Positions 13,185-60,416 of a stretch of DNA of 64,000 nucleotides are shown in pieces. Every line of letters starts with the position of its first letter. The stretch's first letter is position 1. The notes under the pieces are model-generated. The model saw only the letters and a list, made by a program, of their open reading frames with translations. It was not told the DNA's origin and ran no database searches. Origin of the DNA: Dehalococcoidia bacterium (lineage in GTDB: Bacteria > Chloroflexota > Dehalococcoidia > SM23-28-2 > RBG-16-64-32); assembly GCA_963665775.2 (NCBI GenBank), contig CAXXTF010000002.1, forward strand, positions 960,001 to 1,024,000, given 5' to 3'. The position numbers and the translations under genes were made by a program.

Positions 13185-13204
13185 GCACTATGAGTTAATA
13201 GCGT
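13185..13204 (+). repeat. Boundary palindrome site 1
   Basis: GCACTAT-gagtta-ATAGCGT, between convergent gene ends. Confidence 0.8.
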
Positions 13205-13305
13205 CTCACAAGTGCTGTTCGCATGGACTGTACGATGCGCTGAAGGATGCCGGGCCCGTTACCACCGAGGGCGTCGCCTGTTCGGCGCGACCGGTTGCCC
13301 GCGCA

Positions 13306-14856
13306 TCACTCCCCATCCCCCAACGCCAGCGACAGCAACACTGGCGGGTTGGCGAACCCAACCGGAATCACCATCCGGTCGTCCACAATCGCCAGCCAGC
13401 CGTTAATGCCTCCAGGCGCCTCGTAGGACCAGACCTCCATGCCCGTAGCGCGGTCGAACGCCAGGATCACACCGCTCAGCATCGACGTGAACACCAGATC
13501 GTTGACGATTGTCGCTCCCCCGAAGCTGTCCCCAGGAAGTGACACGTCCCACAGGATCTCCCCGCTCGCCGCATCGATCGCAACCAGTTGGCTATCGAAC
13601 GAGCCGAGCCTGACCGCGTTACCGGTGCTCGATTCCTCCGGCCCCGCGTACATGATCGGGGCGTTCACCACGGACACGAACACAACGCCGTCCGCAACAA
13701 CGATTGGCGTTACCACCCCTCCCACAGCTCCCGGCATTACGTCTAGCGCGCCTTCGAAGGTGTCGAGGTCGTCGTTCATATGCATTCCGACCGGTGTGTC
13801 CCACAGCACCGTGCCATCCGGATCGAGGCCGATGACCCGCGCGAGCTTGCCGGTGCTGATGATCACCTGTTCGCCGTCGGGCAGGTTAACGACCGCGGTC
13901 AACACCGTGTCGCGGTCGAAGATGTCGTGCGGAACCGCCTGGTGTCCCCACCTCAGTTGGCCGGTGTGGAGGTCGACGGCCAGAATTGAATCCGTCCATC
14001 GGTTGTCGCCGGGCCGGCTGGAGCCGTTCGGGAAGCCAGACGCGCCGGGGAACGGGTACGGGTTTGACGTTCCCCAGTACGAAACGCCAGCTTCGATGTC
14101 GACTGCCGGAGTATACCAGGCCCCGCCGCCGCTGTTAAGTTCCGGGTTGCCCCAGAGGTCGTCCGACTCGATGGTGTCGAACGACCACACGACCGCGCCG
14201 GTCTCCTGGTCGAGCGCGAACAGCGTGCCACGGCCGCCCGGAATAGATAGCGATGATGTCGCGGCCAGGACCAGCCCGTCCGCTACCGTTGGCTGGATGT
14301 TGATCGCCCCGCCGCTCAATAGTAGGCCCGTCGCCCACAGCTCTTCGCCCGTCGTCGCGTCGTAAGCCGCGATCTCGCTGCCTCTCTTGTTCGCGAACAC
14401 CCTGCCGGAAGCGACGGCGACGCCGCTCGGCCCGAAAACCGGGCCGTCGACTTTGACCATCCATAGCCGTTCCCCGGTCGCCAGGTCAACGGCGTGCACG
14501 TTGGTCAGGAGATCGCCGAGGTAGACGACGCCGTCGATAATGACCGGCGTGGTCGCGGCCGCGCCGGATCCCCCGCCGAAGCGCAGCTCGTATCTCCATG
14601 CCTCGGTCAGCCGGTCAACGTTGCTGGAGTCGATAGTAGAGTCGAACGTAGCGCGAGTGTTCGCGTGGTCGTAGTTCGGCAGCGGCCAGTCGAACTCGAA
14701 CTCGGTCAGCCCTATCGGCGACGGTCGAGGCGTAGGCTCGCCGTCACTTTTGCTGTCACCGTCGGAGCACGCAGCCGCTGCCAAAACCACAATCGCAATC
14801 GCTGCTCTGGGGCAAAAGGCAAAGAATCGGCGGGCATTGTTAAATTTCCGAGTCAC
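13306..14856 (-). CDS. PQQ-binding-like beta-propeller lipoprotein (PVA/quinoprotein dehydrogenase-like)
   Basis: LAAAAC lipobox; repeated AxDxxTGxxxW; GGGAWYTPAVD, WGTSNP, HDIFDRD; start uncertain. Confidence 0.8.
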   Translation of the reverse strand: MTRKFNNARRFFAFCPRAAIAIVVLAAAACSDGDSKSDGEPTPRPSPIGLTEFEFDWPLPNYDHANTRATFDSTIDSSNVDRLTEAWRYELRFGGGSGAAATTPVIIDGVVYLGDLLTNVHAVDLATGERLWMVKVDGPVFGPSGVAVASGRVFANKRGSEIAAYDATTGEELWATGLLLSGGAINIQPTVADGLVLAATSSLSIPGGRGTLFALDQETGAVVWSFDTIESDDLWGNPELNSGGGAWYTPAVDIEAGVSYWGTSNPYPFPGASGFPNGSSRPGDNRWTDSILAVDLHTGQLRWGHQAVPHDIFDRDTVLTAVVNLPDGEQVIISTGKLARVIGLDPDGTVLWDTPVGMHMNDDLDTFEGALDVMPGAVGGVVTPIVVADGVVFVSVVNAPIMYAGPEESSTGNAVRLGSFDSQLVAIDAASGEILWDVSLPGDSFGGATIVNDLVFTSMLSGVILAFDRATGMEVWSYEAPGGINGWLAIVDDRMVIPVGFANPPVLLSLALGDGE

Positions 14857-15101
14857 ACGGAACCGCCGCAGCGTTAGTGGAGCGGACTCGGAGTCACCAC
14901 CGGTGGTGGATGTGCACGGCCTCCTGCGGTGAGGGCTTAAGACTCGCATCCCCTGTACTATACGGTATTGACCCTCGGGCCCGAACTTGCGACGCGCGAT
15001 TCGGCTTCACGCGAGAGAGCGGCCGAAGTGTCCATTAGAAAACGGGCCGAAAAGTCCGAAAGTCGCTGAAGACTGTCACACTCATGGCTCACCTTCGTTC
15101 G

Positions 15102-15314
15102 TTAGTTGGTGAAGATGTCGATGACGTCCGCGACGCGCCCACCGGACTTCAGTCTGTACATTTCGGTATAACCGCAATTGCTGCAGGTTATGGTCCCGAA
15201 CTTCTTGTTCTGCAGGTTGAGGAATCTGCTGAGACCAGACCCGGTCGTGCGGATTTCCTCGGTCTCGTATTTCGTCAAACCGCACTTCGCGCAGGCGAAC
15301 TCTCGTTGTGCCAT
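15102..15314 (-). CDS. Zinc-ribbon protein (DUF2082-like)
   Basis: CAKCG...QNKKF..ITCSNCGYTEMY; GGAGG RBS before MAQREF. Confidence 0.8.
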   Translation of the reverse strand: MAQREFACAKCGLTKYETEEIRTTGSGLSRFLNLQNKKFGTITCSNCGYTEMYRLKSGGRVADVIDIFTN

Positions 15315-15682
15315 TGCCCCTGCCCTCCTCAGGTATCGGTGCGGCATATGCGCCGCGCTTGGTTATGGTCGTGTGAATCTAAATTTCCGATTTCAGCCTG
15401 ATGACGCCGAAATGGTGGCCATCCAATCGACCCGCATGCTACGCTCGGCTCCACCTAGGGTCAACCCTCTTCTCTTTGCCAATGAATGGGTGCTCTGGCC
15501 ATCTTCGGAACACACGCCTTTGGGTTCTCGCGAAACCCGTCCGAGCAAGCCGCCATCGCCGTGGTGAGGACGAAGGAGACCACCTTCCACGTATCTACTG
15601 GTGACGCGCCCGCAGGATCGGAAGCGGTGGCTACACCGGAAAGAGGGCTCACCTGGCCGATGGACTACACGGACGCAGCGGC

Positions 15683-15702
15683 ACGCTATGGCTGAATAGT
15701 GT
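15683..15702 (+). repeat. Boundary palindrome site 2
   Basis: ACGCTAT-ggctga-ATAGTGT. Confidence 0.8.
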
Positions 15703-16033
15703 GCGTTTGATTCAGACCGCGCCCCTGCCAGCGCGGAAGACCTCAGCGAGAAACAGGGGTCATTTGACTCATTTCGATCCGCGTAGACGGGGATCGAGCA
15801 CGTCCCGCAGGGATCCGTTGCGAGAGGGGCTGCGATTAGAGCCGGTCTAACGCGCTCTGCTTATTCTGCCCCTGGGCTGAGCCGTTGTCCTGGTCTGTGG
15901 CGGGAGTCTGACGGTGGGCCAACAGATGAAGTGAGCGCATCACCCGGGTCACCATCCGATTAGTATAGAGTGTGAGTGCCCGGCCGAAGAGTTCGGGTTG
16001 CTGGCGACAGACTGTAGGGAGTAAGGTGCGTTT

Positions 16034-17170
16034 ATGAAGCGGTGCCTTGCCTGCCTGGCTCTATCTATGGTCGCCATGTTTGGGCTGGCCTGCGGTCAGC
16101 AAGACGAGACCGGCCCTGCGACGATCAGTCCCAGCGCACCTCCGGCAGCCACTCCCGAGGCCACCGCGACCCCAGCGCGATCGCCGACGGAACGGCCCAC
16201 AGCCAGCGCGACGGGGCCGGCAACCGACGAATCGCCGGTCGCGAGCCCGGCCGCGCTGCGATGGAGTGAACTGGCGCCGTCGGGGCCCACACCGCCCGCT
16301 CGGCGCGACCACACTCTCGTGACGGATGGAGAAAGGGTCTTCCTCTTCGGTGGTCGCGGGCTGGCGATATTTGGCGACACGTGGGAGTTCGATACGGCAA
16401 GCGGCTCCTGGAGCGAGATCAGCTCAGCACAGGGACCGCCGGCCCGGTTCGGACACAACGCCTTCTACGACCCGGCCGGCCGGCGGATGCTGGTTTTCGG
16501 CGGGCAAGCGGGTAGCAGCTTCTTCAATGACGTCTGGGCGCTGGACGTGAACACAGGCGAGTGGACGGAGCTGGCCGGCGAGGAGGACCTGCCAGCGCCC
16601 CGCTACGGCGCGGCCGGCGCGGTGGATTCAGGAGGCCGCTTCTTGCTCTCCCATGGCTTCACCAACGGGGGCCGGTTTGACGACACGTGGCGATATACCT
16701 TGGCCGACGATTCATGGTCTGATGTATCGGCCGAGGGCGAGCGGCCAGTGGAGCGCTGCCTTATGCGTGCGGTTTGGGACTCTGGGAGCGAGCGCCTCCT
16801 CATGTTCGGCGGTCAGACCACGGGGCGACCGTTTCTGGGCGACCTATGGGAGTTCGCCGACGGAGAGTGGCGAGATCTGAGCACGACCATCGGCCCGTCA
16901 CCACGAAACTTCTACGCAATGGCGTTTGACGCCGATGCTGGACGAGTGGTGCTATACGGTGGCAACACGCAGGATGGGCCGGTAAGTGACGTCTGGTTCT
17001 TTGATTCGGCAAGCGACAGTTGGGCCCAATCGGCGGTGGACGGGGAAGGGCCGTCACCGCGATTCGGGCACGATGCCGTGTGGCTCCCCGATGGCATCAT
17101 GTTCATCTTCGGCGGTCGTGATGACTCCGGGGAGCTGAACGATATCTGGGAGCTGGAGATCGTTCTGTGA
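16034..17170 (+). CDS. Kelch-repeat lipoprotein
   Basis: GLAC lipobox, Pro/Thr linker, repeated PxxRxxH...FGG...DxW. Confidence 0.9.
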   Translation: MKRCLACLALSMVAMFGLACGQQDETGPATISPSAPPAATPEATATPARSPTERPTASATGPATDESPVASPAALRWSELAPSGPTPPARRDHTLVTDGERVFLFGGRGLAIFGDTWEFDTASGSWSEISSAQGPPARFGHNAFYDPAGRRMLVFGGQAGSSFFNDVWALDVNTGEWTELAGEEDLPAPRYGAAGAVDSGGRFLLSHGFTNGGRFDDTWRYTLADDSWSDVSAEGERPVERCLMRAVWDSGSERLLMFGGQTTGRPFLGDLWEFADGEWRDLSTTIGPSPRNFYAMAFDADAGRVVLYGGNTQDGPVSDVWFFDSASDSWAQSAVDGEGPSPRFGHDAVWLPDGIMFIFGGRDDSGELNDIWELEIVL

Positions 17171-17216
17171 GGTTGAGCCTACTACGGTACGCAAGCCCAG
17201 GGCTGTAACGCGCCTG

Positions 17217-17236
17217 ACACTAAGTGTCGATAGTGG
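17217..17236 (+). repeat. Boundary palindrome site 3
   Basis: ACACTAA-gtgtcg-ATAGTGG. Confidence 0.75.
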
Positions 17237-17371
17237 CGATTATGACAGGAGGCTCCGCGTCGAGATCATCAGGGCCTAGAGTGGCTGCGATAAGCGAATG
17301 CAGAGAGTGGAACTGCCAAGCGACACTTTTCGGCTGCACACCAGAGGTGACTCCGGATAACGCCGCATCTG

Positions 17372-17395
17372 ACCGTCGTGGCGACGGTGTATAAT
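17372..17395 (+). promoter_or_regulatory. Putative thiolase promoter with palindromic operator
   Basis: ACCGTCG-tgg-CGACGGT immediately before TATAAT (17390-17395). Confidence 0.45.
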
Positions 17396-17463
17396 CGGGC
17401 CACTGAGATCTTGGCCGCTAGTGTCGGCCAGGAACGCGGGGAAAGACTAAAAGGGAGGCTTTA

Positions 17464-18687
17464 ATGGGATCTCTCACCAGGAAAGCGGCCATCGTCGGTG
17501 CGTATGAACACCCGTTACGGGTAGCCCCTGGCTACACGGAGATGGGGATTGAGATGGAGTGCGCCAAGGCGGCGCTGGAGGACGCCGGCCTAAACTTTGA
17601 GGATGTGGACGGCTTCTTCGGGGTCACTGCACCGGTGGAGAACATGAGCGCCGCTACCTATTGCGACTATCTGAACATTCACCCCCGGATCGTCGGCGAC
17701 ACAAGTATAGGGGGCGCTACGTTCCTCCGGTTTGTGCTGGAGGCGGCGTCCTTCATCAACGCCGGCCTGATGAACGTGGGGCTCATCACCTACTCCCAGC
17801 TCCTCGTCAGCCGGGGTTGGGGTCTCTTTCGGCCTATCTCCTTCGGCGGTACCGGCGGCTCGAAGCGACCACGTAGTGCCTCGGCGATCAGGGCGGCAGC
17901 TCGCCCCGCTCCCTCGTGGACCGAGGCTTTCTCCGCCCCCTACGGTCTGGTGGGGGTAGCCGGCTACGGCCAGGTGGCGCAGCGCCACATGCACGAGTAC
18001 GGCACGACCAGCGAGCAGTTGGCGGAGATCGCCGTGGCCACCCGCTACAACGCCTCCTTCAATCCCCAGGCCAAGTACCAGAGCCCGATCACGGTGGAGG
18101 ATGTGGTAGACTCGCGGCTGATCTGCTCGCCCCTGCACCTGTTGGACTGCTGCGTTGTCACCGATGGCGCTGGTGCCGTAGTGGTGGCCAGCCCGGAGGT
18201 AGCGCGGGGCTGTAAGCAGCCGCCGGCATGGGTGTTGGGTGGGGCGATGGCGATCGGGCACCGCGACGCCGGCTATCGGGACTACGGGCGGATCGCCGCC
18301 GCCGAATCGGGCCCCCGGGCCTTTGCCGACGTTGGGCTCAGCCAAGACGACATCGACCTATGCATGCTGTACGACTCCTACACGATCACCGTCCTGACCA
18401 CGCTGGAGGGGCTGGGGTTCTGCGAGATCGGCGAGGGCGGGCCCTTCGTGGCCAGCAAGAACATGCGGTTCGACGGGGACTTTCCACTTAACACCGATGG
18501 TGGCGGGCTCTCCTCCAACCATCCGGGGGCCAGGGGGATGTTTCTGTTGATCGAGGCCACCCGGCAGTTGCGGGGCAACCAGGGGAAGAGCCAGGTGAAG
18601 GACTGCAAGATAGCCCTGTGCCACGGCACCGGTGGAACGATAGGAACCATACATAGCGGGGCCACCGTGTTCCTGGCCAAAGACTAA
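17464..18687 (+). CDS. Thiolase family protein (SCP2-thiolase-like)
   Basis: PLHLLDCCVVTDGAGAVVV, LYDSYT, PLNTDGGGLS..HPG. Confidence 0.9.
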   Translation: MGSLTRKAAIVGAYEHPLRVAPGYTEMGIEMECAKAALEDAGLNFEDVDGFFGVTAPVENMSAATYCDYLNIHPRIVGDTSIGGATFLRFVLEAASFINAGLMNVGLITYSQLLVSRGWGLFRPISFGGTGGSKRPRSASAIRAAARPAPSWTEAFSAPYGLVGVAGYGQVAQRHMHEYGTTSEQLAEIAVATRYNASFNPQAKYQSPITVEDVVDSRLICSPLHLLDCCVVTDGAGAVVVASPEVARGCKQPPAWVLGGAMAIGHRDAGYRDYGRIAAAESGPRAFADVGLSQDDIDLCMLYDSYTITVLTTLEGLGFCEIGEGGPFVASKNMRFDGDFPLNTDGGGLSSNHPGARGMFLLIEATRQLRGNQGKSQVKDCKIALCHGTGGTIGTIHSGATVFLAKD

Positions 18688-18769
18688 GTCACCCTGATTG
18701 CGCTTCAGGCACGGAAGTGCGCCAAATGACCGCCCAGGGATTAGGACGGTCGCGGCCTTGAACCGCCGA

Positions 18770-18789
18770 ACACTATGACTTCATCGTGT
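18770..18789 (+). repeat. Boundary palindrome site 4
   Basis: ACACTAT-gacttc-ATCGTGT. Confidence 0.8.
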
Positions 18790-19017
18790 ACCCTGGCAGC
18801 CATACTGGCCTTGACAACCCGTCACGAATCGGAGCTGTGTGTCTAGGCAGATAACTTTACCCAAGAGTTTGGGTTGTGGCCTATTCCGACCCTCATTGCG
18901 AGGCGCTGAAGGGAGTACTATAATCCTTTCTCACTAGCGTGGCGGCAGGGGCTTGAGGGGGAGGACCACGCCGCCCTTCAGGGTCCGTCGGATCTGGACG
19001 GCGGAAGGGAGATCGCT

Positions 19018-19755
19018 GTGATCAGAGTTCGTCGCAATAGTGAAATCTACGAAGTCGTGGGCGACTGGTATCACGCCCGCTGGCACTTTTCGTTTGAGAC
19101 GTACAACGATCCCGAGAATGAAAGCTTTGGGGCTATGCGCGTGTTCAACGACGACCGCCTGACCCCCGGTGCCATCTGGCCGCTTCACCCACACCGTGAC
19201 GTCGAAGGGCTCACCTATGTCGTGGAAGGCACGTTCGGACACGAGGACAACGTCGGAGGCTCATATGGACCACTACCGGCCGGGTCGGTGCAACGCATGA
19301 CGCTGGGCTCAGGGGCGCTCCACTCCGAGCAGAACGCGTCGAAAGACGAACCGATGCGATTCGTCCAGATCTGGATCCTCCCAGACACACCTGACCTCAA
19401 GCCAGGAGTCGAGCAGCGTGTCTTTACGCTCGAGGACCGCACCAACAGGCTCCTGAAGGTCATCGGTCCCGAAGGAGGCGACAGTGTCCGGCTTCATCAG
19501 GACGCGTCCGTCCACATCGCTTCGCTGGAGCCAGGCGTTGAGGTCACGCACGAGATTAGCACGCGCCGTGGCGTGTATGCATATCTGATCGATGGCGCGG
19601 CCCGGTTCTTCGAAGAGCACCTGCATACTGGCGACGCGGCCAAGGTGACGGACGAACCCGATCTTCGCATCCGTGCGGTTAATCGGAGCGAGCTCATCCT
19701 TGTGGATGTGCCAATGCAGTTCAAACCAGTGGGGATATGGAAGGGCCGAATCTGA
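19018..19755 (+). CDS. Pirin family protein
   Basis: HFSF..Y.DP, RVFNDD, HPHRDVE, HSE.N, QIWILP; TATAAT at 18919 upstream. Confidence 0.9.
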   Translation: MIRVRRNSEIYEVVGDWYHARWHFSFETYNDPENESFGAMRVFNDDRLTPGAIWPLHPHRDVEGLTYVVEGTFGHEDNVGGSYGPLPAGSVQRMTLGSGALHSEQNASKDEPMRFVQIWILPDTPDLKPGVEQRVFTLEDRTNRLLKVIGPEGGDSVRLHQDASVHIASLEPGVEVTHEISTRRGVYAYLIDGAARFFEEHLHTGDAAKVTDEPDLRIRAVNRSELILVDVPMQFKPVGIWKGRI

Positions 19756-19767
19756 AAGGAGCATATT

Positions 19768-20313
19768 ATGAGTGACTTGGACACCAAGGAGTCCGCCACT
19801 TTCGTTCGGGTTACGCGATTGAATCACGCCGTCCTATACGTTCGGGACCTGAACCGGTCGGTGGAATTCTACCAGCTAGCCTTCGGATTCCAAGAGATCG
19901 CCCGCGAAGCGGGGAAGATGGCCTTCCTGCGCTCCCGCGGATCCAGCAACCACCATGACCTTGGGCTTCTGGAGGTGGGACCGACGGCCGCGCAGCCGGC
20001 GCCCGGATCTACCGGACTCTACCATCTGGCCTGGGAAGTGGCCAAGATTGAGGATCTGGCCGAGGCTGCCTCCCTGCTGGCCGATCTAGGTGCGCTCACT
20101 GGCCAGAGCGATCACGGGGCTACCAAGTCGCTCTATGGGCGCGATCCCGATGGCAATGAGTTCGAGGTAATGTGGATGGTTCCCCGGGACCGATGGGGCG
20201 AATTCGATAGCCGCGCCGTGGTGGCCCCCCTCGACCTCAGACACGAACTAACTCGCTTCGGCAGTGTCCAACGGGACAACGAGCAGGCAGCGCGCCGCGC
20301 CAGCAGAGATTAG
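19768..20313 (+). CDS. VOC/glyoxalase family protein
   Basis: LNHAVLYVRDL, HHDLGL, GLYHLAW, SLYGRDPDGNEFE. Confidence 0.9.
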   Translation: MSDLDTKESATFVRVTRLNHAVLYVRDLNRSVEFYQLAFGFQEIAREAGKMAFLRSRGSSNHHDLGLLEVGPTAAQPAPGSTGLYHLAWEVAKIEDLAEAASLLADLGALTGQSDHGATKSLYGRDPDGNEFEVMWMVPRDRWGEFDSRAVVAPLDLRHELTRFGSVQRDNEQAARRASRD

Positions 20314-20366
20314 CCAAATACCCTTCGTTCATGTCACCGAGCGCCTTATCAGACGGTTGGGCGACC

Positions 20367-20386
20367 ACACTAAGTCCGCATAGCCT
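20367..20386 (+). repeat. Boundary palindrome site 5
   Basis: ACACTAA-gtccgc-ATAGCCT. Confidence 0.65.
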
Positions 20387-20459
20387 CCCCCCAGATATGT
20401 TATTCTCCACCCCAGACGTTTCCATCAATATGATGACATGAAGATTAGGGTGACATCCC

Positions 20460-21335
20460 ATGCGCTTCGGCCTCGATGAGCCCGAGTCGCACTTCTATGA
20501 ATCTCAACGGCTCCGGCTGCACTACGTGGTATGGCGTGAAAGCAGCGGCCCTCCGCTCCTGCTTATCCACGGCAGCAGGGAGCACTGCAGAAGCTGGGAT
20601 TTCGTGGCGCGGACGCTCAAGGACCGCTATACCATCTACGCTCCCGATCTTAGGGGTCATGGCGATAGTGAGTGGGTTACAGATGGCTCTTACGGAACAC
20701 CTGAATTTGTCTTGGACATAGCGACTCTAGCCGAAACGATTGAGGGTTCACTTGCCATCATGGGTTTCTCCCGGGGCGGAAACATCGCCCTGCAGTATGC
20801 CGGAGTATTTCCGGAGAGAGTGTCGAAAGTGATAGCGGTCGAGGGACTCGGACCTCCCATGGTCGCTCACAGCCCGGACGGCATGGCCCCCCCTGCACGA
20901 ATGCGGCATTGGATCGACAGCAGGCGCCACGGGGAGCGACGACGATTGCGCAGGCATGTTTCCGTAGAGGAAGCTACTCGCCGAATAATTGAGGTGAACC
21001 CGCGAGTCAGCCCCGATATCGCTCGCCATTTGGCCCTTCATGGCATCCGGAAAAACGAAGACGGCACCTACTCGTGGAAGTTTGATAACTACCTCGTCGC
21101 AGGCGCAGGCGGTCTGCACCCTGACGGGGGCGAGGAGCTTTGGGCCAACATTCGAGCGCCCGTGCTTCTCGTAACTGGAAGCGAAAGCTGGTCCGCTCAT
21201 CCGGAGTGGCAGGCAAGAGCCCGCGCACTCCCCTTTTATCGCTCGGCGGTTATCGAGGGCGCTGGTCACTGGGTCCACCACGAACAGCTGGACCGCTTCT
21301 TGGAGGTAGTGGAGGCGTTCTTAGCGGACGGCTAA
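20460..21335 (+). CDS. Alpha/beta hydrolase
   Basis: LLIHG, DLRGHGDS, GFSRGG nucleophile elbow, AGHWVHHE. Confidence 0.9.
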   Translation: MRFGLDEPESHFYESQRLRLHYVVWRESSGPPLLLIHGSREHCRSWDFVARTLKDRYTIYAPDLRGHGDSEWVTDGSYGTPEFVLDIATLAETIEGSLAIMGFSRGGNIALQYAGVFPERVSKVIAVEGLGPPMVAHSPDGMAPPARMRHWIDSRRHGERRRLRRHVSVEEATRRIIEVNPRVSPDIARHLALHGIRKNEDGTYSWKFDNYLVAGAGGLHPDGGEELWANIRAPVLLVTGSESWSAHPEWQARARALPFYRSAVIEGAGHWVHHEQLDRFLEVVEAFLADG

Positions 21336-21396
21336 GGCTCGGAGCCAGAAACCCTCCGAGGCCGCCGACGAGTCTGGTCAGCTCACCGCCGAAGCA

Positions 21397-21416
21397 ACAT
21401 TATGTGTGGTTAGTGT
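21397..21416 (+). repeat. Boundary palindrome site 6
   Basis: ACATTAT-gtgtgg-TTAGTGT, between convergent gene ends. Confidence 0.7.
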
Positions 21417-21459
21417 GCCCTTGAGAGGCACCCTTGAGCACCGGAGTCGCCCTGCAACT

Positions 21460-22865
21460 CTACGCCGCCCAATCCAGGGACAGTACCTCGGCCTGTTCGA
21501 GGACGATGATGGTGGCTTTCTCTTGCTTGTCCGGTGGGTAGCCGTATCTCCGAAGGATGCGCTTCACAATCGTCCGGAGCTTCGCCCTCACACTCTGCTT
21601 GACTGTCCAGTCGATGGTGACGTTGCGCTTCACCGCGTCGACGAGCTCGCGAGCGATGGTCCGGAGGGTTTCGTCGCCGAGCACCTGGACGGCGCTATCG
21701 TTGACGCCGAGGGCATCATAGAATGCCAGCTCCTCGTCCGATAGGCCGAGGTCTTCCCCTCTCGCCTCGGCTGCCTGCATGTCCTTTGCTAGCTTGATCA
21801 ACTCCTCGATCACCAGGGCGGTCTCTATTGCCCGGCTCTGATAGGCGCGAACTGCACGCTCCAACATCTCCCCGAAGGACCGCGCCTGGACCACGTTTTT
21901 CTTGGCGCGCACCTTGATCTCGTCCTTCAGGAGCTTCGACAGCAGGTCGACGGCAAGGTTCTTCTGGGGCAGACCGCGTACTTCGGCGAGAAATTCGTCC
22001 GAGAGGATGGAGATGTCCGGCTTCTTAAGTCCGGCAGCAGCGAAGATGTCGACCACCTTGTCGGACACTATGGCTCTGGAGATGATCTGGCGAATCGCGT
22101 TATCGAAATCCTCCTCTGCCTTGCCACTCACGGAGGACTTGGCTATCGCTGCCCGGACGGCCTGGAAGAAGGCAACATCATCCCGGATGCGGATGGCCTC
22201 TTCACGAGTAGGGGCTAGGGCGAAGGCGCGAGAAAGATCAGTGACTGCTTTCAGAAACCGCTCTTTGCCGTCCACCTGGGCCAGGATATGCTCCTGAGCT
22301 GCAGGCAGAACGGAAAGCCGCTCTAACGGAGAGCCGGTCGTGAATGCCGAATAGTCTAAGCCGTCGAACATGGCCGCCACGATCTCGTACTTCTCCAGCA
22401 TGACAGCAGCGGCCTCTTCCAGATCGACGGCCGTGGTGCCTGAGCCGCCGCTCTCCGTGTAATTGGCAATAGCGCGCCGGAGCTGGTCAGCGAGGCCAAG
22501 ATAGTCAACTACAAGCCCGCCCGGCTTATCGCGGAATACGCGGTTCACGCGAGCTATGGCTTGCATGGAGTCCGTGGCCACGCATCGGCTTGTCTACGTA
22601 CATCGTGTGAAGGCTCGGAGCGTTGAAGCCCGTGAGCCACATGTCCCGTACAATCACAGCCTTGAGGGGGTCGTTTGGGTCCCGAAACCTCTTCGCCAGC
22701 GCCTCCCGGCGCGCCTTATTCCGAATGTGGGGTTGCCATGGCAGGCGATCTGAAGCCGAGCCAGTCATGACGACCTTCAGCGTGCCTTTGCTGTCGTCGT
22801 CCGGGTGATGCCACTCCGGCTTGAGGTGGACAATAGCGTCGTACACCTCTACGCAGATCCGTCGG
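21460..22865 (-). pseudogene. hsdR: Type I restriction endonuclease subunit R, C-terminal part (DUF3387), frameshifted and 5'-truncated
   Basis: [37 protein letters not shown] / [27 protein letters not shown]...[11 protein letters not shown]; frameshift near 22570. Confidence 0.9.
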
Positions 22866-23431
22866 CTCTCCTCGATCAGATAGCCGTAGATGGCCTTCAC
22901 CTCGCCAGCCAGCCGCCGGACCCGCCCGACGAGGAGTCCCAGTACCTCCACTATTCGCTCATCGAGCTGAACGCCGCTGGTCTTGCCGATTGGGGATCGC
23001 TTCTTCTTTCCCCAGACACCGAGGCGGACGGTCCCCAGAAACGCCCGAATCTCCAACGGTTCGCCGGGCTTGAGGTTAGGATTCTTCACCAACAGGGCGT
23101 TTGCGACAGCGGGGTCGAACACGATCGCCTCCTCCATCTCGACCAGCGCCCGTTCAAACCAGAGGATGCGGTCGCGCTCAAGGAGCTGCCTCCGCGCTTC
23201 ATCGACCAGCTGAGCCAGCAAACGAAGGTTAGGTAGAAGCACCTGGTACCGGGTTATTACCGCGTGATAGCGGTCCCACTCCTGGCTGCTGAGCGCCCGA
23301 ACCATCTTAAGACGGTCGCCCGGGGAGAGCGCCGGCTCCTTGCGGACGGTGTCCTCTATGGCCAGGCGCGCCTTCTCCTCGGGAGAGAGGGCACGGATGA
23401 TCTCTTCGAGTCGTTTCTCTTTGGACGTCAT
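22866..23431 (-). pseudogene. 3'-truncated copy C of the ~300-aa hypothetical, fused in frame to the hsdR fragment
   Basis: [12 protein letters not shown]...YLIEESR matches 10525..11427, then switches to HsdR sequence. Confidence 0.85.
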
Positions 23432-23438
23432 AGGGACT

Positions 23439-23816
23439 CTAGGCGTTCCTCCGAAGCGTATCTTCCAGGGCTTCGAGCCTGCTCTCCAGCTCGCCCTTTT
23501 CCAGCAGATTTACGCTCACCTGGGCCAAGTAGGCCAGGGCGCGGGAGCGGCCGAGGGAGTTCTCCAGGGACAGAGTATCTACGGCCGCTACTTCGACCAG
23601 TCTCCGGATCTCGGTGACAGTGCCGAGCCCCTGGAAATCGTAGGCGCTGGCGACGGTCTGTTCCTTGCGCCGGCGGAGTCCGCCCAGCCGCCTGGCCTCA
23701 GCGACCTCCTGCGCACGTTCTGGTTCGTGCCAGAAGCAGAACTCCCCCTCCAGAAGGGGTGGAGCGCCGCATACCTCACCGGACTCCTTGCGGAACGAGC
23801 AAAGGCGCGATTGCAC
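23439..23816 (-). CDS. Zinc-motif hypothetical protein, copy C
   Basis: Near-identical to 10135..10518. Confidence 0.8.
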
Positions 23817-23823
23817 TTATGCC

Positions 23824-25107
23824 TTACCTTCCCTTACATATGCTAACAGGGGGCTTGCTTGCCATCGCCGGAGTTGGGGCCTTTTCCGCCTTAATGCCGG
23901 TGAAGGACTCCCAGCGGGCGATCGCTATCCGGCAATAGTGTGGGTCTAATTCCATGCCATAGCAGACCCGCCCTGTCCGCTCGGCGGCGATGAGGGTGGT
24001 GCCCGAGCCGAGGAAGAGGTCCAGCACTACATCACCCGGTCTGCTGCTGTTCTCGATGGCCCGCTCAACCAGGGCCAGCGGCTTCATCGTGGGGTGCAGC
24101 TCCGACTCCGCCGGGCGGGGGAGGGTCCAGACGTCACCCTGGTCGCGGTCGCCGCACCAGTCGTGTGTGGCTCCCTCTCGCCAGCCGTACCAGATGGGCT
24201 CGTACTGGCGCTGGTAGTCAGCCCGACCGAGGGTGAAGTGATCCTTGGCCCAGATGATGGTGTCCGACCAGTGGCCACCGAGTTCCTCCAGGACGCGGGA
24301 AACCGTAGCCCACTCCTTGGTGGACATGCAGATGTAGGTGGCACCCTCCACCGACTCCAAGAGGTTCTTCGCCCAGGCGCGACAGAACGCCTCCCATTCC
24401 TCCGGCGACAGAGCATCGTTCTTGATCCGGCGCTTGCGGGTGCCCCGCTGCTGGCCGCCGTGATCGCCGTAGCTAACGTTGTATGGCGGATCCGTGAAGG
24501 CCAAGGAGGCTTGCCCTGTGCCCACCAGGCGGCCAACGTCGCCCTGGTCGGTAGCATCCCCGCACGTGATGCGATGGTCGCCGAGCCGCCAGACCTCGCC
24601 TCGCTCAACGCCGGGGTCGGCCTGGGCCGCCTCCAGGGCAGCGTCGAGGTCAAACGTCTCGGGCCGATCCCGCTTTTCACGGACGTTGAGGGAGCGAAGC
24701 AAGTTCTTGATCTCGTCCTCCTCGAAGCCGGTGAGAGTTATGTCGACCTCGGGGGCCTCGCCCAGCTCGGAAAGGAGGCGGGCCAGCAACTCATTGTCCC
24801 AGTCCCCGGAGATGCGGTTGAGGGCCAAGTTCAAGAGCTTCGCCTGCTCCACAGTGAGTTCCACGAAGATGACTGGAACGGTGGCGTAGCCGAGGCGGCG
24901 GGCTGCCAGGAGACGTTGATGGCCGCCGATGACACATTGGTCTTCATGGCGAGCGATGATGGGGTCTACCATGCCAAATTGCTGGATGCTGCGGGTCAGC
25001 GACTCCAATTCGGCATCGGAGATGCGCCTGGGGTTGAAGGGGTCGGGCCGGAGATCGCCGATGGGGACGTGCTGAATCTCGATTTTCGTCTTCGCTTCTG
25101 CAACCAC
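23824..25107 (-). CDS. ParB-N / DNA methyltransferase, copy C (intact)
   Basis: FTDPPYNV, HPTMKP, DLFLGSGTT; GTG start with GGAGGG RBS. Confidence 0.9.
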   Translation of the reverse strand: MVAEAKTKIEIQHVPIGDLRPDPFNPRRISDAELESLTRSIQQFGMVDPIIARHEDQCVIGGHQRLLAARRLGYATVPVIFVELTVEQAKLLNLALNRISGDWDNELLARLLSELGEAPEVDITLTGFEEDEIKNLLRSLNVREKRDRPETFDLDAALEAAQADPGVERGEVWRLGDHRITCGDATDQGDVGRLVGTGQASLAFTDPPYNVSYGDHGGQQRGTRKRRIKNDALSPEEWEAFCRAWAKNLLESVEGATYICMSTKEWATVSRVLEELGGHWSDTIIWAKDHFTLGRADYQRQYEPIWYGWREGATHDWCGDRDQGDVWTLPRPAESELHPTMKPLALVERAIENSSRPGDVVLDLFLGSGTTLIAAERTGRVCYGMELDPHYCRIAIARWESFTGIKAEKAPTPAMASKPPVSICKGR

Positions 25108-25211
25108 GATGGCCCTCCAAACCAAACGAAAAAGCCAGCCCAGAAGACCTGGGCTGGCCTCAATACTCCACACAGGGTCTTAGCCTGTGAAACCTTCTTT
25201 AATTATCTTAA

Positions 25212-25442
25212 TTATATCACAAGGTAGACCATTTCACTGCAGCCTCGATGTCTCAGGACTTCGGCAGGGCTCCCGCCCGCTGTGCCATTTCTTATGTGAC
25301 GCCACACCTGTCGCCACTCGTTTCGGGGACTCTTGCGGCGACATTGGGGGCAATAGACGACATCCTCTTTCCGCGTCGCGTTTGGCTCCCGGCCAGCCAC
25401 GCGGCCCGCGCCTCTTGGAAGTGCCCCTCCCTCTCTCATCAC
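25212..25442 (-). CDS. Small hypothetical protein with CxxC
   Basis: GGGGAG RBS, YCPQC...HRGC; lies between the recombinase tail and the methyltransferase. Confidence 0.45.
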   Translation of the reverse strand: MMREGGALPRGAGRVAGREPNATRKEDVVYCPQCRRKSPRNEWRQVWRHIRNGTAGGSPAEVLRHRGCSEMVYLVI

Positions 25443-25461
25443 TCCCCTAGACCGACGCCCA

Positions 25462-25700
25462 TCACTTCTGAGCGGGCCCGAGAACTTGGGTCACCCGCGC
25501 CCGTGAAACACCCTGGAGGCGAGCAAGAGCAGCGCGGTTTGGCGCTGCACCCGTTTCAAGCAGCCCTCTCCAGGAGTCCGCCAGATCCTGGACAGCCTTC
25601 CTAGCCGTTGCCTTCCGGCGAGACCAGTTGAGGAGGCTAGCTAAGCGAACGGGGAAAGACTGCCGCAGAACGCTCTGGGACACAAATCCGGGGAGCCAAT
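25462..25700 (-). pseudogene. C-terminal tail remnant of the serine recombinase
   Basis: WLPGFVSQSVLRQSF...L.SL..W.RR aligns with WLPGLVPQSVLRDVF...LPSLSRWIRR in 3090..3770; ends in HTH-like AALARLQGVSRARVTQVL. Confidence 0.7.
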
Positions 25701-25989
25701 GTCAACTATTCCTTCGCCCCCATCCTTCTCCCTCTCCAGCCGATCCAGGGCAAAGAAGGGCAGATAGGCCATCTTGGGGGCGAAGGCTACCTTCTTTCGG
25801 TCTCGCACTGAGGGGTGTTCCCCGCCAGCAACTTTCAGAATCTGTGTAAGGAGATCCTAATGGACATCAGGACAGGAATTACTAAATGTTTCCTGCCGTT
25901 TCTGAGAGCCTATCCCCCAGGTAAATACATGGACCCTGGAGACGTCTCTGATGCGTGAAAGCAAGACTTCGGGCAGCCTCTCCCATTAT

Positions 25990-26049
25990 TCCGGCCTCTT
26001 GGAGGTGTTGAAAGGAGAGGCGGAAAGAGGGCTGGACGCTGGTATGTGA
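25990..26049 (+). pseudogene. Fourth remnant: last codons of the ~300-aa hypothetical
   Basis: SGLLEVLKGEAERGLDAGM* versus SGQLLEILKGQAKRGLDAGG* in copy B. Confidence 0.7.
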
Positions 26050-26094
26050 ACGAGCCTGGCGCGGGCCAGATGCTCGTAATGTACAATCAGTGGC

Positions 26095-28016: not shown

Positions 28017-28160
28017 CCGACACTCCCCTACTTGAGCCCTTGCGCGATGAGTGCTCGGAATGCGCCCAATTGTTAGCTAATGCAGGTTTGAGGGTTATCA
28101 CACGCAAACAAGCACGCCCTAAAAGGCCCAGGCTCATCTACCAGGTGTACAATCGACGGC

Positions 28161-30034: not shown

Positions 30035-30195
30035 CTGACACTCCCCATACTTGCCAGCAGGACTGCGGCTGACAGCGAGCAGCCCGCCGCCACCGCGAGC
30101 GCCATGGCCAGAGTCTTGATCTCCCAGAGTATAAGGTCAGCGAAAAGCAGGCAGCCAAGCGTCCACAGAGCGACCAAGAGCCCACTGGCCGCGTG

Positions 30196-30215
30196 ACACT
30201 ATGAGTTAATAGCGT
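30196..30215 (+). repeat. Boundary palindrome site 7
   Basis: ACACTAT-gagtta-ATAGCGT. Confidence 0.85.
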
Positions 30216-30463
30216 ATCCGGGCCGCTGCCGCAAGGCGGTGACAATTACTCCTGTCAGGACTTGATCCGAGAGGGCCTTCCTCACCTCCAGATCGCGAAA
30301 GGACCACAGACAAACGCGCCGCTGGCCCTCACACAGCGCAAGTTCACTAGCACTCCTGGTCAGCCCCCGAAGCCCATCCAGTTTCCCGACATTCCGGATC
30401 CCTTGACACTCGCACCCGGAGCGGGTACCGTACCATCATTCAAAGGGCCAAAAAGGAGGAGTC

Positions 30464-32285: not shown

Positions 32286-32309
32286 GCGAGAGTAGCGTAG
32301 CAAAGGCTG

Positions 32310-42578: not shown

Positions 42579-42598
42579 ACGCTATTAACTCATAGTGT
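42579..42598 (-). repeat. Boundary palindrome site 10
   Basis: ACGCTAT-taactc-ATAGTGT, exact reverse complement of site 7; between convergent gene ends. Confidence 0.85.
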
Positions 42599-44220: not shown

Positions 44221-44240
44221 ACACTGCCCACACATAGAGT
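44221..44240 (-). repeat. Boundary palindrome site 11 (degenerate)
   Basis: ACACTGC-ccacac-ATAGAGT; spacer is the reverse complement of site 6. Confidence 0.55.
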
Positions 44241-51584: not shown

Positions 51585-51604
51585 ACACTAGGGAACGACA
51601 GCGT
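51585..51604 (+). repeat. Boundary palindrome site 12 (degenerate)
   Basis: ACACTAG-ggaacg-ACAGCGT, abutting the CoA-transferase stop codon. Confidence 0.5.
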
Positions 51605-52800
51605 CAGTCGATGGCTCCCCGCTCCCTGAGGTCGGCGATCTGTTGCTGACTATACCCGATCTCGGCCAGAACCTCGTCCGTGTGTTCGCCCGTATACGGG
51701 GTAGGCCTACTGATTTCGAAGCCGTCGCCTTTCACCTTGACGGGGCTGGCCGCAGCCTTGATCGTCCCGTACTCCCGGCAGTCCTGATCGACGAACATCT
51801 GGCGAGCCTTGAACAGGTCGGACTCGGCCATTTCGTTAAGCGGGTAATAGGGAGCACCGGCGATGTTGTTGTCGATGAAGATGTTGGTCCACTCAGCCTG
51901 CGTCTTCGTGGCGAAAACCTTGATCATCTCCTGCCTCAGCTCCTCGTCACCGGAGCCGCTATCCATGCGGCTCACGCTCCAGTCGCCGCGGTTCTCCAGG
52001 TCGAGCCGGTCGATGACCGTACAGAAGCGGAACCAGAAATTTCGCTCGATCGCTTGAATGAGCATGAAGCGGTCATCCTTGGTCTTGTAGTAGCAGTACT
52101 TAGCGCTTATATCGACGTTTGGGTCCTTCCAACCCTCTTCACCATCGTTGAGGACGGGCAACATCTCCTGCCCCAGGGCGGCCACTGTCGCGTCTGAGCA
52201 GGAGATATCCAGATAAGCGCCCTCACCGGTACTCTTTAACTGAACCAGGGCAGCGCATACCGCCATGGCGCCGACCCAGGAGCCGTAGGTCAGGCCATGA
52301 GGGTAGGGCCGGAACTGCACGTAGTTGCCGTCATTCGTCTGATAGGGGATGGCCAGGCCGGCAACGGCATCATAGGCGCCACCGTGGGTGGCCAGATGCG
52401 CGAAAGGCCCGTCCTGGCCGAAGCCGGTAATCGAGCAGTAGATGATGCCTGGATTGACGGCCCTGAAATCCTCGTAGCCCAGACCAAGCTTGGCCTCGAC
52501 GCCGGGTCGGGCGCCCTCCACCACTACCTGACAGCTCTTGGCCATGTCCAGGAGTATCTGGCGGCCCCCAGGAGCGTTCAGGTCCATAGAGATGTCCCGC
52601 TTGTTGCGGTTTATCCACAGGAACAGGGGCATCGACCCACCCCATTTGTCGGGCTCTCTGCCAAACCTGAGGTAGTCGGCGGCTGACTTCTCCTCGACCT
52701 TGATCACGTCGGCGCCCATATCGGCGAGGAGCATGGTGAGCATGGGACCCGGGATAAGGCGGGACATGTCCATGACCTTGATTCCCTTCAGAAGCTTCAC
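51604..52800 (-). CDS. CaiB/BaiF class III CoA-transferase
   Basis: PGP...LADMGADVIKVE, NRNKR, YCSITGFGQDGP, GEHTDEVL. Confidence 0.9.
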   Translation of the reverse strand: MKLLKGIKVMDMSRLIPGPMLTMLLADMGADVIKVEEKSAADYLRFGREPDKWGGSMPLFLWINRNKRDISMDLNAPGGRQILLDMAKSCQVVVEGARPGVEAKLGLGYEDFRAVNPGIIYCSITGFGQDGPFAHLATHGGAYDAVAGLAIPYQTNDGNYVQFRPYPHGLTYGSWVGAMAVCAALVQLKSTGEGAYLDISCSDATVAALGQEMLPVLNDGEEGWKDPNVDISAKYCYYKTKDDRFMLIQAIERNFWFRFCTVIDRLDLENRGDWSVSRMDSGSGDEELRQEMIKVFATKTQAEWTNIFIDNNIAGAPYYPLNEMAESDLFKARQMFVDQDCREYGTIKAAASPVKVKGDGFEISRPTPYTGEHTDEVLAEIGYSQQQIADLRERGAID

Positions 52801-54745: not shown

Positions 54746-54765
54746 ACACTATGGGAACATAGTTC
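54746..54765 (+). repeat. Boundary palindrome site 13
   Basis: ACACTAT-gggaac-ATAGTTC. Confidence 0.65.
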
Positions 54766-56108: not shown

Positions 56109-56128
56109 ACGCTGTTCAGCCATACAGT
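56109..56128 (-). repeat. Boundary palindrome site 14 (degenerate)
   Basis: ACGCTGT-tcagcc-ATACAGT; same spacer as site 9. Confidence 0.5.
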
Positions 56129-58930: not shown

Positions 58931-59207
58931 CCCTGGGCCCGGGATTAATGTCTCCCCGTTTCCTTCGGTATGAACACCCCCTATTCTAAGTGATTAATCG
59001 ATCTGTCAACCCCGCACAACGGCGTCGGAATCCGATATACCGTTCGGGGCGCGACAGGACATGCACCATGTTCCCATCGTGGAGGCGGGGCCTCGCCCTC
59101 CTACTACCGGAGCGCAAATGGATGCCGTGTTTCCACCATGACCTTACCCCTCTTTCACCCTATACTGAGAGCAAACTCCGGTATGGTAGGTTGCCGGAGC
59201 CCGAACG

Positions 59208-60329
59208 GTGAGGAGGGAGCTAGCGGTGCGAACACTCATAGCAGGGCTTGCATTTACCGCCATCACGCTGACCGCTTGCACGAGCGGTGAGGACGCCGGC
59301 TCCGCCCCGACAAGTGGTGCGACGGACCGCCCAGGCCCGACCCCCACTGCTATAGGCACTGGGGTTAGTGCCACCCCCACCACTGTCCCTTCGACCCCAT
59401 CAGCAATCCCAAGCGCGAGCCCCGAGCCACCACGACAGCCTGCACTGACCGTATACATGGTCCCGTCGGGATCCCGACCCCACGACGTCGCCCCCGCGAT
59501 CGACGGTGGTGTCTGGTACACCGCACAGGGCAGTGGCGAGCTCGGCTGGCTTGACCCTGTGTCGGGGGAAACGCTGCACATCTCACTGGGACCAGGGTCC
59601 GCACCTCACGGGGTAGTTGTGGGGCCTGACGGAGCTCCCTGGATCACGGACGGTGGACTTAACGCCATCGTTCGGGTAGATCCGCAAACGGACGAGGTCA
59701 AACGCTTCCCGTTGCCCGCTGACCGTCCCAATGCCAATCTCAACACGGCGACGTTTGATGGCCGTGGCCAGCTCTGGTTCACGGGTCAAAACGGTGTCTA
59801 CGGACGCCTCGATCCTGAAACCGGAGAGATGGAGGTGTTCGACGCTCCACGTGGGCGGGGGCCGTACGGGATCACTTCGACACCGGACGGCGAGGTCTAT
59901 TACGCATCGCTAGCAGGGAGCTACATTGCTCGCATAGATGTGGAAACTGGGGAGGCAACCGTCATTGAACCGCCCACCCCAAATCAGGGGGCGCGCCGCG
60001 TCTGGTCGGACTCTGATGGCCGGATTTGGGTAAGCGAGTGGAACTCGGGGCAGGTCAGTATGTACGACCCTGATACAGAGGATTGGCAAATTTGGAAGCT
60101 ACCGGGCGCGGCTCCCCGCGTCTATGCGGTCTATGTGGATGAACGGGACAAGGTGTGGCTGAGCGACTTCGGTGCGAACGTCCTGCTTCGGTTCGACCCG
60201 GAGACTGAACAGTTCGAGTCTTTCACTCTACCGAGCTCTCCAGGAAACGTTCGCCAGATATTGGGGAGGCCCGGCGAGGTCTGGGCGCCGGAATCAGCGG
60301 CAGACGAGCTCGTGGTTGTACGTTATTGA
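59208..60329 (+). CDS. Virginiamycin B lyase (Vgb)-like beta-propeller lipoprotein
   Basis: LTAC lipobox; PHDVAP..DG.VWYT, PHGV..GPDG..WITD repeats. Confidence 0.85.
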   Translation: MRRELAVRTLIAGLAFTAITLTACTSGEDAGSAPTSGATDRPGPTPTAIGTGVSATPTTVPSTPSAIPSASPEPPRQPALTVYMVPSGSRPHDVAPAIDGGVWYTAQGSGELGWLDPVSGETLHISLGPGSAPHGVVVGPDGAPWITDGGLNAIVRVDPQTDEVKRFPLPADRPNANLNTATFDGRGQLWFTGQNGVYGRLDPETGEMEVFDAPRGRGPYGITSTPDGEVYYASLAGSYIARIDVETGEATVIEPPTPNQGARRVWSDSDGRIWVSEWNSGQVSMYDPDTEDWQIWKLPGAAPRVYAVYVDERDKVWLSDFGANVLLRFDPETEQFESFTLPSSPGNVRQILGRPGEVWAPESAADELVVVRY

Positions 60330-60396
60330 GCGGTGCGAATACGGGGCCTGAGGATCGACGGTGCAATGCGGCCTATTAGGGGCCAGCGCGGTGACC

Positions 60397-60416
60397 ACAC
60401 TATGTGTCGATCGTGG
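60397..60416 (+). repeat. Boundary palindrome site 15
   Basis: ACACTAT-gtgtcg-ATCGTGG; same spacer as site 3. Confidence 0.75.

Follow-up and report, generated by a model that had tools for sequence, protein, structure and literature searches.

The window analysed here is a stretch of 64,000 nucleotides from a Dehalococcoidia bacterium, corresponding to positions 960001-1024000 of contig C2 in a genome of 2.35 Mb with a GC content of 63% and two contigs (C1 and C2). It contains an array of near-palindromic 20-bp sites, and the genes located between the sites are unrelated to each other. Judging from sequence comparisons, these are probably the core sites of an Xer-like tyrosine recombinase, and recombination between sites of the same spacer class would swap the slots of ordered arrays. 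The main evidence is that repeats in the genome break inside the sites, that the partners at these breaks have matching spacers, and that the spacer classes follow one another in an order that recurs in other islands and in another genus.

The 20-bp sites of the window

An earlier note on this DNA had listed an imperfect palindrome, RCRCTAW-N6-ATMGYGK, at 15 positions, and a site is present at each of them. Exact matches to this pattern were found at eight of the positions (13185, 15683, 17217, 18770, 30196, 40140, 42579, and 60397), and the pattern gives 11 strand-matches in the window, compared to 0.07 expected from 100 shuffles. The consensus ACACTAT-N6-ATAGTGT, with at most three mismatches, has 16 matches in the window, compared to a mean of 0.50 and a maximum of 3 in the 100 shuffles. 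These 16 matches represent 14 of the 15 listed sites, all except 56109, and two additional positions at 10010 and 23922. We also scored the sites with a position weight matrix (PWM) built from sites across the genome, using the reversed window and the reversed genome as controls. With this matrix, scores of 17-32 bits were obtained for 12 of the 15 sites, while those at 44221 (13.1 bits), 56109 (11.4 bits), and 51585 (7.9 bits) are decayed, each with a spacer typical of its class. A further intergenic site at 59063 (12.6 bits) was absent from the earlier list. The reversed window gave three matches of 7 bits or more.

The spacers form about ten discrete and much-reused classes, of which nine are here called A (GAGTTA), B (GGCTGA), C (GTGTCG), D (GACTTC), E (GTCTGC), F (GTGTGG), G (GGGAAC), H (GGCGCA), and I (GACCTG). 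With the weak sites included, the window starts with one site each of classes A to F, all on the forward strand: A at 13185-13204 (29.1 bits), B at 15683-15702 (28.0 bits, intergenic), C at 17217-17236 (27.9 bits), D at 18770-18789 (31.0 bits), E at 20367-20386 (17.4 bits, spacer GTCCGC), and F at 21397-21416 (26.8 bits). These are followed by A at 30196-30215 (32.2 bits) and E at 35599-35618 (19.8 bits), both on the forward strand, and by B at 40140-40159 (26.4 bits), A at 42579-42598 (32.2 bits), and the decayed F site at 44221-44240, which has three arm mismatches, all on the reverse strand. The remaining sites are a decayed G-like site at 51585-51604 (GGGAAC with a one-base shift, no strand assigned), a G site of ambiguous orientation at 54746-54765 (GGGAAC/GTTCCC, 18.5 bits), the decayed B site on the reverse strand at 56109-56128, the weak additional G site at 59063-59082 (no strand assigned), and a forward C site at 60397-60416 (27.8 bits).

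Conservation is restricted to the 20 bp of the site; the 40-bp flanks of the 15 sites could not be aligned, and the same was observed in a profile of 41 sites from the whole genome. The information profile of these 41 sites bears out the layout described in the earlier note, with two inverted 7-bp arms around an asymmetric 6-bp spacer (7-6-7), which is the generic layout of a tyrosine-recombinase core. At spacer position 1, 40 of the 41 sites have a G, but at the mirror position none has a T and just nine have a C. Because the G at position 1 has no mirror partner, the site is directional. Position 4 of the spacer is a T in 31 of the 41 sites.

All intergenic counts build on our own crude gene model, in which 86% of the genome is coding, and by this model 14 of the 15 listed sites are intergenic. 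The earlier statement that all of them lie between genes therefore holds except for the site at 40140, which is placed in a doubtful open reading frame (ORF) of 151 amino acids with a low GC content at third codon positions. As stated in the same note, three sites are located between convergent 3' ends, namely 13185 (genes 11734-12996(+) and 13306-14949(-)), 21397, and 42579 (genes 41035-42477(+) and 42693-43988(-)), and the site at 51585 touches the stop codon of the gene at 51604-52800(-).

Palindromes that are intergenic and sometimes placed between convergent genes could also be REP-like or terminator-like hairpins that merely accumulate there. Of five sites that were folded, the one at 15683 is better than its shuffles (-6.3 kcal/mol, z -2.46) and is terminator-like in a simple scan, but three of the five fold no better than the shuffles (-0.3 to -2.1 kcal/mol). 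The arms of class A contain conserved differences that do not pair (ACACTAT and ATAGCGT), which indicates that pairing is not maintained, and there is no T-run. Terminator-like matches number 7, compared to 10.8 in shuffles, and a promoter and terminator scan of the window revealed neither an excess nor a consistent overlap with the sites. No Rfam family matched in the window. Since hairpins also explain neither the junctions nor the spacer order described below, we consider them a highly improbable explanation.

The genome encodes four paralogous ParB_N/N6-N4 methylase genes, each of which has a 14.8-bit motif match with the spacer TGCCGG in its coding sequence. The two matches of this kind in the window, at 10010-10029 and 23922-23941, are mutually inverted and bracket the A-F array. 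Being located within these paralogues, with repeats running across them, they were set aside.

Repeats break inside the sites

No close relative of the source genome is present among the 65 genomes of the order used here (64 besides the source), and paralogues within the genome were used for the breakpoint analysis. The DNA at positions 13100-21500 of the window matches the 65 genomes only at the level of single genes, with 64-77% identity and on separate contigs. The junction statistics cover 66 sites outside the methylase gene family and the 2145 pairs that they form.

When the genome was compared to itself, the repeats were found to stop at the sites. The end of a repeat, defined as a high-scoring segment pair, is located inside 24 of the 66 sites, compared to 2-9 of 66 at 12 shifted control offsets. 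While repeats cross 18-22 of the 66 positions located 300 and 500 bp to either side, none crosses a site. In the window, repeats start or end inside seven of the 15 listed sites. At 17217, one repeat ends at 17229 (copy at C1 683618-683721) and another starts at 17203 (copy at C1 313284-313085), so that this site has one-sided flank pairs on each side. Repeats end at 18788 in the site at 18770 (copy at C2 450733-450441), and at 60416 and 60415 in the site at 60397 (96% identity, copies at C2 218802 and C1 782060). They start at 35598 and 35599 at the site at 35599 (copies at C1 778332 and C2 194822), and at 51588 in the site at 51585 (86% identity, copy at C1 819914).

The other two sites, 20367 and 21397, delimit adjoining modules. 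The module in the D-E slot, at 18814-20383(+), contains a pirin-like gene and a glyoxalase-family gene as classified by Pfam, and is 98.2% identical to C2 355531-353961. The module in the E-F slot, at 20368-21415(+), contains an alpha/beta hydrolase gene (Pfam) and is 96.7% identical to C2 247544-246503, a copy which is likewise bounded by E- and F-class sites. Because the two modules are copied at two different places in the genome, the repeats break inside the site at 20367. The left arm of this site, ACACTAA, is also found at C2 353958, in a site with the same left module, and the right arm, ATAGCCT, is also found at C2 247526, in a site with the same right module. By its arms, the site at 20367 is a clear chimera of two sites located elsewhere in the genome. 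A MITE-like (miniature inverted-repeat transposable element) repeat, about 140 bp long and bearing inverted repeats at its ends, located at C2 ~355570-355715 and ~196620-196765, occupies the expected position of a D- or F-class site beside two of the module copies.

The left flank alone is shared in 16 of the 2145 site pairs and the right flank alone in 6, and no pair shares both. The spacers are identical in 18 of the 22 one-sided pairs and differ by one base in the other four, whereas identical spacers are found in 159 (7.4%) of all pairs; the pairs are not independent, as families of three copies yield three pairs. Over the 22 one-sided pairs, the arm next to the shared flank contains 15 differences, compared to 35 in the far arm. 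Since the partners have the same spacer and each arm travels with its own flank, we place the crossovers inside the 6-bp spacer. Exchange between the arms of sites with a matching overlap is a signature of tyrosine-recombinase chemistry, and products with one arm from each parent and an overlap identical between the partners are what a core site would be expected to leave. Among 98 sites in the recombinase loci of other metagenome-assembled genomes (MAGs), seven pairs are one-sided and one is two-sided.

The spacer classes occur in a fixed order

The A to F series of the window recurs at C2 253678-241038, where the sites A, B, C, D, E, and F are followed by inverted I and H sites, a sequence resembling a site, which overlaps a recombinase promoter at its -35 box, and the recombinase gene. 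At C1 782059-767460, the sites C, E, and F are followed by inverted I and H sites, the promoter, and the gene. Besides the window and C2 253-246 kb, partial runs in the same order were identified at four places, and the shorter runs that follow it are A B C, C D E, and B G C. In a genome from another genus (G040, genus g3), contig C43 contains six sites in the same orientation and in the order A, B, G, C, D, and E, with a drift of 0-2 bases, and contig C85 contains D, E, and F. However, the cargo of the arrays in this genome has no meaningful similarity to that of the source genome, with only two matches between the ORFs at 26-32% identity. The order of the classes is common to several islands, another genus, and dozens of Dehalococcoidia MAGs.

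The PWM identified 70 sites of at least 14 bits in the genome, compared to five in the reversed genome, and 45 compared to none at 20 bits or more. Most of them are clustered at C2 192-384 kb, in the window, at C1 ~767-815 kb, and at C2 1435-1441 kb. According to the gene model, 49 of the 70 sites are intergenic and another six overlap the end of a gene. Because of this clustering in islands and the intergenic location of 49 of the 70 sites, the motif is neither a general promoter element nor dispersed in genes, which were the findings that would have spoken against the earlier proposal. The sites occur in a mixture of orientations to the genes beside them, with 17 end/start, 12 start/end, 9 start/start, and 7 end/end.

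The strict pattern is present in 24 of the 65 genomes of the order, while the backwards control gave no match in any genome, and the same classes recur. In fragmented assemblies, several strict matches are located within 150 bp of contig ends, as is expected when repeated modules adjoin different neighbours. A scan of metagenomes for the pattern returned at least 119 stretches, 80 of which were kept. Nearly all of these contain a single match with an unrelated spacer on a low-GC contig, and such single matches are due to chance in a very large collection. Among the matches listed, two stretches resemble the system, L169, which has four sites, and L132.

Candidate recombinases

The genome contains 22 matches to the Phage_integrase domain, none of which is located in the window. 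This agrees with the earlier note, which saw no tyrosine recombinase there, although a serine recombinase fragment of 309 amino acids with Resolvase and Recombinase domains but no zinc ribbon is encoded at 3984-4913(-).

One of the candidates, here called rec1, is an Xer-like protein of 312 amino acids. It is encoded by two intact copies that are 91% identical, at C1 766482-767420 and C2 240060-240998, and there is a remnant at C2 ~60.8 kb. The closest solved structures are XerD and XerA, with a weaker match to IntI4, and rec1 scores below every curated cut-off (XerC, XerD, XerA, and integron integrase). The alignment with XerD runs through the R..K..HxxR..H..Y motifs, and these residues, which we take to be catalytic, are invariant in six orthologues. 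Orthologues with 63-79% identity are found in many Dehalococcoidia MAGs, often in several copies. A second Xer-like family, rec2, has 337 amino acids and five copies or fragments in or beside the arrays, one of them at C2 1438444-1439457.

The homology between the two rec1 copies is lost shortly beyond a site-like sequence that is located 40 bp upstream of the start codon. The promoter (TTGACTT followed by a -10-like ATGGT or ATAGT), the gene, and the genes downstream of it are conserved between the rec1 loci. By contrast, the DNA directly upstream of the promoter differs in almost every locus; it is non-homologous, and the upstream ORFs are not common between loci. Several loci have a palindromic site directly adjoining the -35 box of the promoter. 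The 80 rec1 loci, covering 1.42 Mb, contain 99 sites of at least 15 bits, compared to three in the control. All 22 sites with the spacer GACCTG are located upstream in inverted orientation. The eight with GTGTGG are all upstream in forward orientation, and they are farther out than GACCTG in all four loci with both. The three with GGCGCA are all inverted, and this spacer is the one closest to the gene in 2 of 2 cases.

A large serine recombinase of 531-538 amino acids is encoded downstream of rec1 in 40 of 68 loci, along with two conserved proteins encoded between the tyrosine and serine recombinase genes, for which no family was found in Pfam or NCBIfam. The C1 copy of the serine recombinase gene adjoins an ORF of 381 amino acids for a ChlI/Mg-chelatase (ComM/YifB-like) protein that seems to lack its C-terminal part, suggesting that the island may have integrated into this gene.

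The promoters of rec1 and rec2 are alike, with TTGACTT, about 14 bases, AGAG(C/T)G, and an ATGRT-like -10 box, which suggests common regulation or a common descent of the regulatory region. When foreign rec2 loci were searched within 1.5 kb on either side, a site was found in two of eight.

Based on the site at the promoter, the array upstream, and the co-occurrence described below, the cognate recombinase of the sites would be one of these Xer-like genes. A site at a promoter would also be expected if the sites were operators of a DNA-binding protein encoded by the islands, with general recombination exchanging the modules incidentally. Some temperate phages carry many repressor sites of this kind, called stoperators. 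A near-palindrome of 20 bp in intergenic DNA is typical of a dimeric regulator, its position against or over the -35 box (TTGACTT) fits autoregulation, and either of the two proteins without a family could bind DNA. The spacers of operators should drift freely, however, rather than form about ten discrete classes that keep a fixed order across genera among unrelated genes. Neither does this explanation fit the crossovers between the arms at 66 sites that no repeat crosses, given that 20 bp of imperfect identity would presumably be too short for efficient RecA-type exchange. The mixed orientation of the sites to the genes and the three window sites between convergent gene ends also argue against operators. 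We regard this alternative as rather unlikely, although a regulatory role and a role in recombination would be compatible with each other.

The earlier note had also suggested that tyrosine recombinases distributed together with the motif should be sought, and rec1 and rec2 show such a distribution. In the 64 other genomes, which are related and hence not independent, and many of which are incomplete, 10 of the 12 that encode rec1 have the strict site, as do 13 of the 52 without it. The corresponding numbers are 12 of 18 and 11 of 46 for rec2, and 17 of the 25 genomes with rec1 or rec2 have the strict site, compared to 6 of the 39 with neither.

These counts also bear on the alternative that the sites are dif-like and served by the Xer proteins of the host chromosome, as proposed for pdif, while the Xer-like genes in the islands are mere cargo or other integrases. 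The inverted arms, the 6-bp spacer, and the requirement for matching spacers are shared with pdif, many arrays, that of the window among them, lack a recombinase gene of their own, and a better-scoring Xer homologue (165.8 bits) is encoded at C1 734585-735538. However, strict sites are absent from 41 of the 65 genomes, all of which are expected to have a host Xer, and they track rec1 and rec2 instead. Sites are also located at a constant position relative to the rec1 promoter, with an ordered array upstream, in dozens of loci. Furthermore, the near-symmetric arms of 7 bp differ from the distinct 11-bp XerC and XerD arms shown in Table 1 of PMC13141974. We consider it unlikely that the host Xer is the acting enzyme, and prefer a recombinase encoded by the islands.

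Comparison with known systems

To our knowledge, integrons and pdif modules are the only well-described gene movers that are bounded by tyrosine-recombinase sites, and both are known chiefly from Proteobacteria. A literature search found no description of a system like the one presented here in Dehalococcoidia or Chloroflexota, with incomplete coverage of subscription journals.

The closest known system is that of the pdif (dif) modules on Acinetobacter Rep_3/OrfX plasmids, so that the comparison with pdif made in the earlier note was apt. Recombination between pdif sites has been demonstrated to require 6-bp spacers that are the same or nearly so, and modules are exchanged singly by way of cointegrates that form and are then resolved. 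The crossovers fall within the site, and the backbone is conserved while the accessory modules vary (PMC13141974). The pattern in the present system agrees on each of these points, and also in that discrete modules are delimited by short sites of the Xer type whose spacer is 6 bp long.

There are also several differences. While pdif sites have distinct 11-bp XerC and XerD arms (Table 1 in PMC13141974), the arms observed here are near-palindromic and match neither these nor attC, as the earlier note had recognised, the sites being short and weakly folding. Neighbouring pdif sites are inverse, with alternating C and D modules, whereas the sites in the islands are mostly in direct orientation, and classes A-F have a single orientation in the window and at C2 246-254 kb, as do the six sites on contig C43 in the other genus. 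The pdif modules reside on small plasmids and use the XerC/XerD of the host, whereas the arrays described here are located in chromosomal islands and are headed by a candidate dedicated Xer-like gene. The fixed order of the spacer classes across genera also differs from pdif. In short, the sequences suggest that the system may work like pdif, with the addition of a fixed order of orthogonal classes and a recombinase linked to the array.

Similar to integrons, the gene for a tyrosine recombinase lies next to a variable array, the units of which mostly have one or a few genes, and its transcription is directed away from this array. At the rec1 loci, the boundary between the conserved and the variable DNA is at the site beside the recombinase promoter. 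The array in the window differs from an integron with its IntI in that no recombinase gene is adjacent to it. Arrays of this kind are comparable to the CALINs (clusters of attC sites lacking integron integrases), which are orphan arrays without a recombinase. The attC sites of integrons are long hairpins of 57-141 bp that recombine as folded single strands, while the sites in the islands are 20-bp cores of the duplex type that fold weakly as single strands. Matching spacers between partners and a fixed order of sites are not features of integrons. We also considered that the system is an integron, but rejected this explanation because of the 20-bp conservation, the weak folding, and scores far below the cut-off of 265 bits for the integron-integrase model TIGR02249 (49.7 bits for rec1 and 65.5-67.7 bits for the rec2 family).

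The logic of the spacer classes is that of engineered heterospecific lox and FRT sites, the spacer variants of which recombine only with themselves and allow recombinase-mediated cassette exchange of a segment between two different sites without deletion, although that is a laboratory design. We know of no description of a natural array with about ten orthogonal classes in a fixed order. Shufflons (Rci/sfx) also consist of a tyrosine recombinase and many short, clustered sites, but they invert segments of a single gene to vary a protein, whereas here whole unrelated genes appear to be swapped between distant arrays.

A model for the exchange of slots

In the model that we propose, a dimer of the recombinase would bind the two inverted 7-bp arms, and two sites with the same 6-bp overlap would come together in a synapse, with strand exchange at either edge of this overlap. 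We infer the binding, the cleavage positions, the acting enzyme, and its present-day activity. Recombination would be limited to partners whose overlaps are identical or almost so, which would make the about ten classes mutually orthogonal. A crossover between two arrays at sites of one class would swap everything distal to it, and a second crossover at another class, through the formation and resolution of a cointegrate, would complete the swap of a slot or a run of slots. Because both steps would preserve the order of the sites, the model would account for an order of the classes that outlasts the content of the slots, and because different classes would not react with each other, it would also account for the lack of self-deletion in arrays of directly repeated sites. 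The cargo consists of ordinary accessory metabolism. The best candidate for the enzyme is rec1, the promoter of which abuts a site at the proximal end of its array, with rec2 as an alternative or a partner, and the array in the window would be an orphan that is served in trans.

The earlier note had proposed that the sites delimit mobile gene cassettes that are shuffled by a recombinase acting in trans. The observed patterns, including the one-sided flanks, support exchangeable modules and an enzyme encoded outside the window, but not cassettes in the sense of integrons, that is, as excised circles. An exchange slot by slot between arrays would fit the data better.

Some observations weigh against the interpretation of the sites as recombinase core sites. 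The arms are only 7 bp long, which is short for the half-site of a tyrosine recombinase, and accessory sites were not observed. Like several other arrays, that of the window is located far from any tyrosine recombinase gene. The co-occurrence data are unable to separate rec1 from rec2; G034, which is a complete genome, has six copies of rec2 and no strict site, and three site-rich genomes (G002, G017, and G042) have no rec1 by the query used here, two of the three being only 86% complete. The dependence among the flank-sharing pairs and the crude gene model behind the intergenic counts are further points of this kind, and the model leaves the entry of wholly new cargo into a slot unexplained.

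Public sequencing data also belong here, and six runs were found to contain 78-86% of the words of the window at positions 17000-22000. Assembled Logan contigs from four of the runs and three studies, inspected over positions 12800-32700, contain no joint at any of the sites, and they span the sites at 13185, 15683, and 30196 in the same arrangement as in the window; being contigs, which drop rare variants, they neither show nor rule out rare rearrangements. The joints listed in these contigs fall inside paralogous genes. A contig of 1016 nucleotides in two runs extends from inside the site at 20367 to inside the site at 21397, as is expected for a repeated module.

We tentatively propose, as a broader possibility for which the odds are somewhat less than even, that the Dehalococcoidia carry an undescribed, integron-independent exchange platform, in which about ten orthogonal sites, distinguished solely by their 6-bp overlap and arranged in an order older than the genera, would allow natural cassette exchange by a dedicated Xer-like recombinase in islands that integrate by means of a large serine recombinase. 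If so, the arrays would be small linkage maps with defined crossover points, the slots of which hold interchangeable "alleles" of unrelated accessory genes. They would provide a mechanism for the rapid turnover of accessory genes and for the expansion of paralogues in the Dehalococcoidia, and may be a main engine of the paralogue-rich accessory metabolism in this class. As a third system, found in a major uncultured environmental lineage, they would show more than one origin of site-specific gene exchange by modules. Genome engineering would also benefit from such a ready natural supply of orthogonal sites that are served by a single small recombinase.

Other features of the islands

A "backbone" of the islands is repeated in several diverged copies with 70-84% identity, some of which are inverted. 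Copies are located at positions 1-12996 and 21460-25173 of the window and at C2 229-235 kb, 256-260 kb, and 942-953 kb. The backbone encodes a protein of 868 amino acids with a primase-type zinc finger, the ParB-methylase, and ORFs of unknown function. Within the window copy that starts at 21460, two adjacent ORFs at 21460-23431(-) contain only the C-terminal domains of the R subunit of a type I restriction enzyme and probably represent a broken hsdR gene.

Tandem paralogues at 26095-30034(+) in the window encode a protein of about 315 amino acids that has no match in Pfam or NCBIfam, and approximately ten or more copies of it are present in the genome. Finally, a module with a molybdopterin oxidoreductase of 854 amino acids, located at C1 782385-784949(+), is present in five or six copies with 76-98% identity, two of which start exactly at a C-class site.

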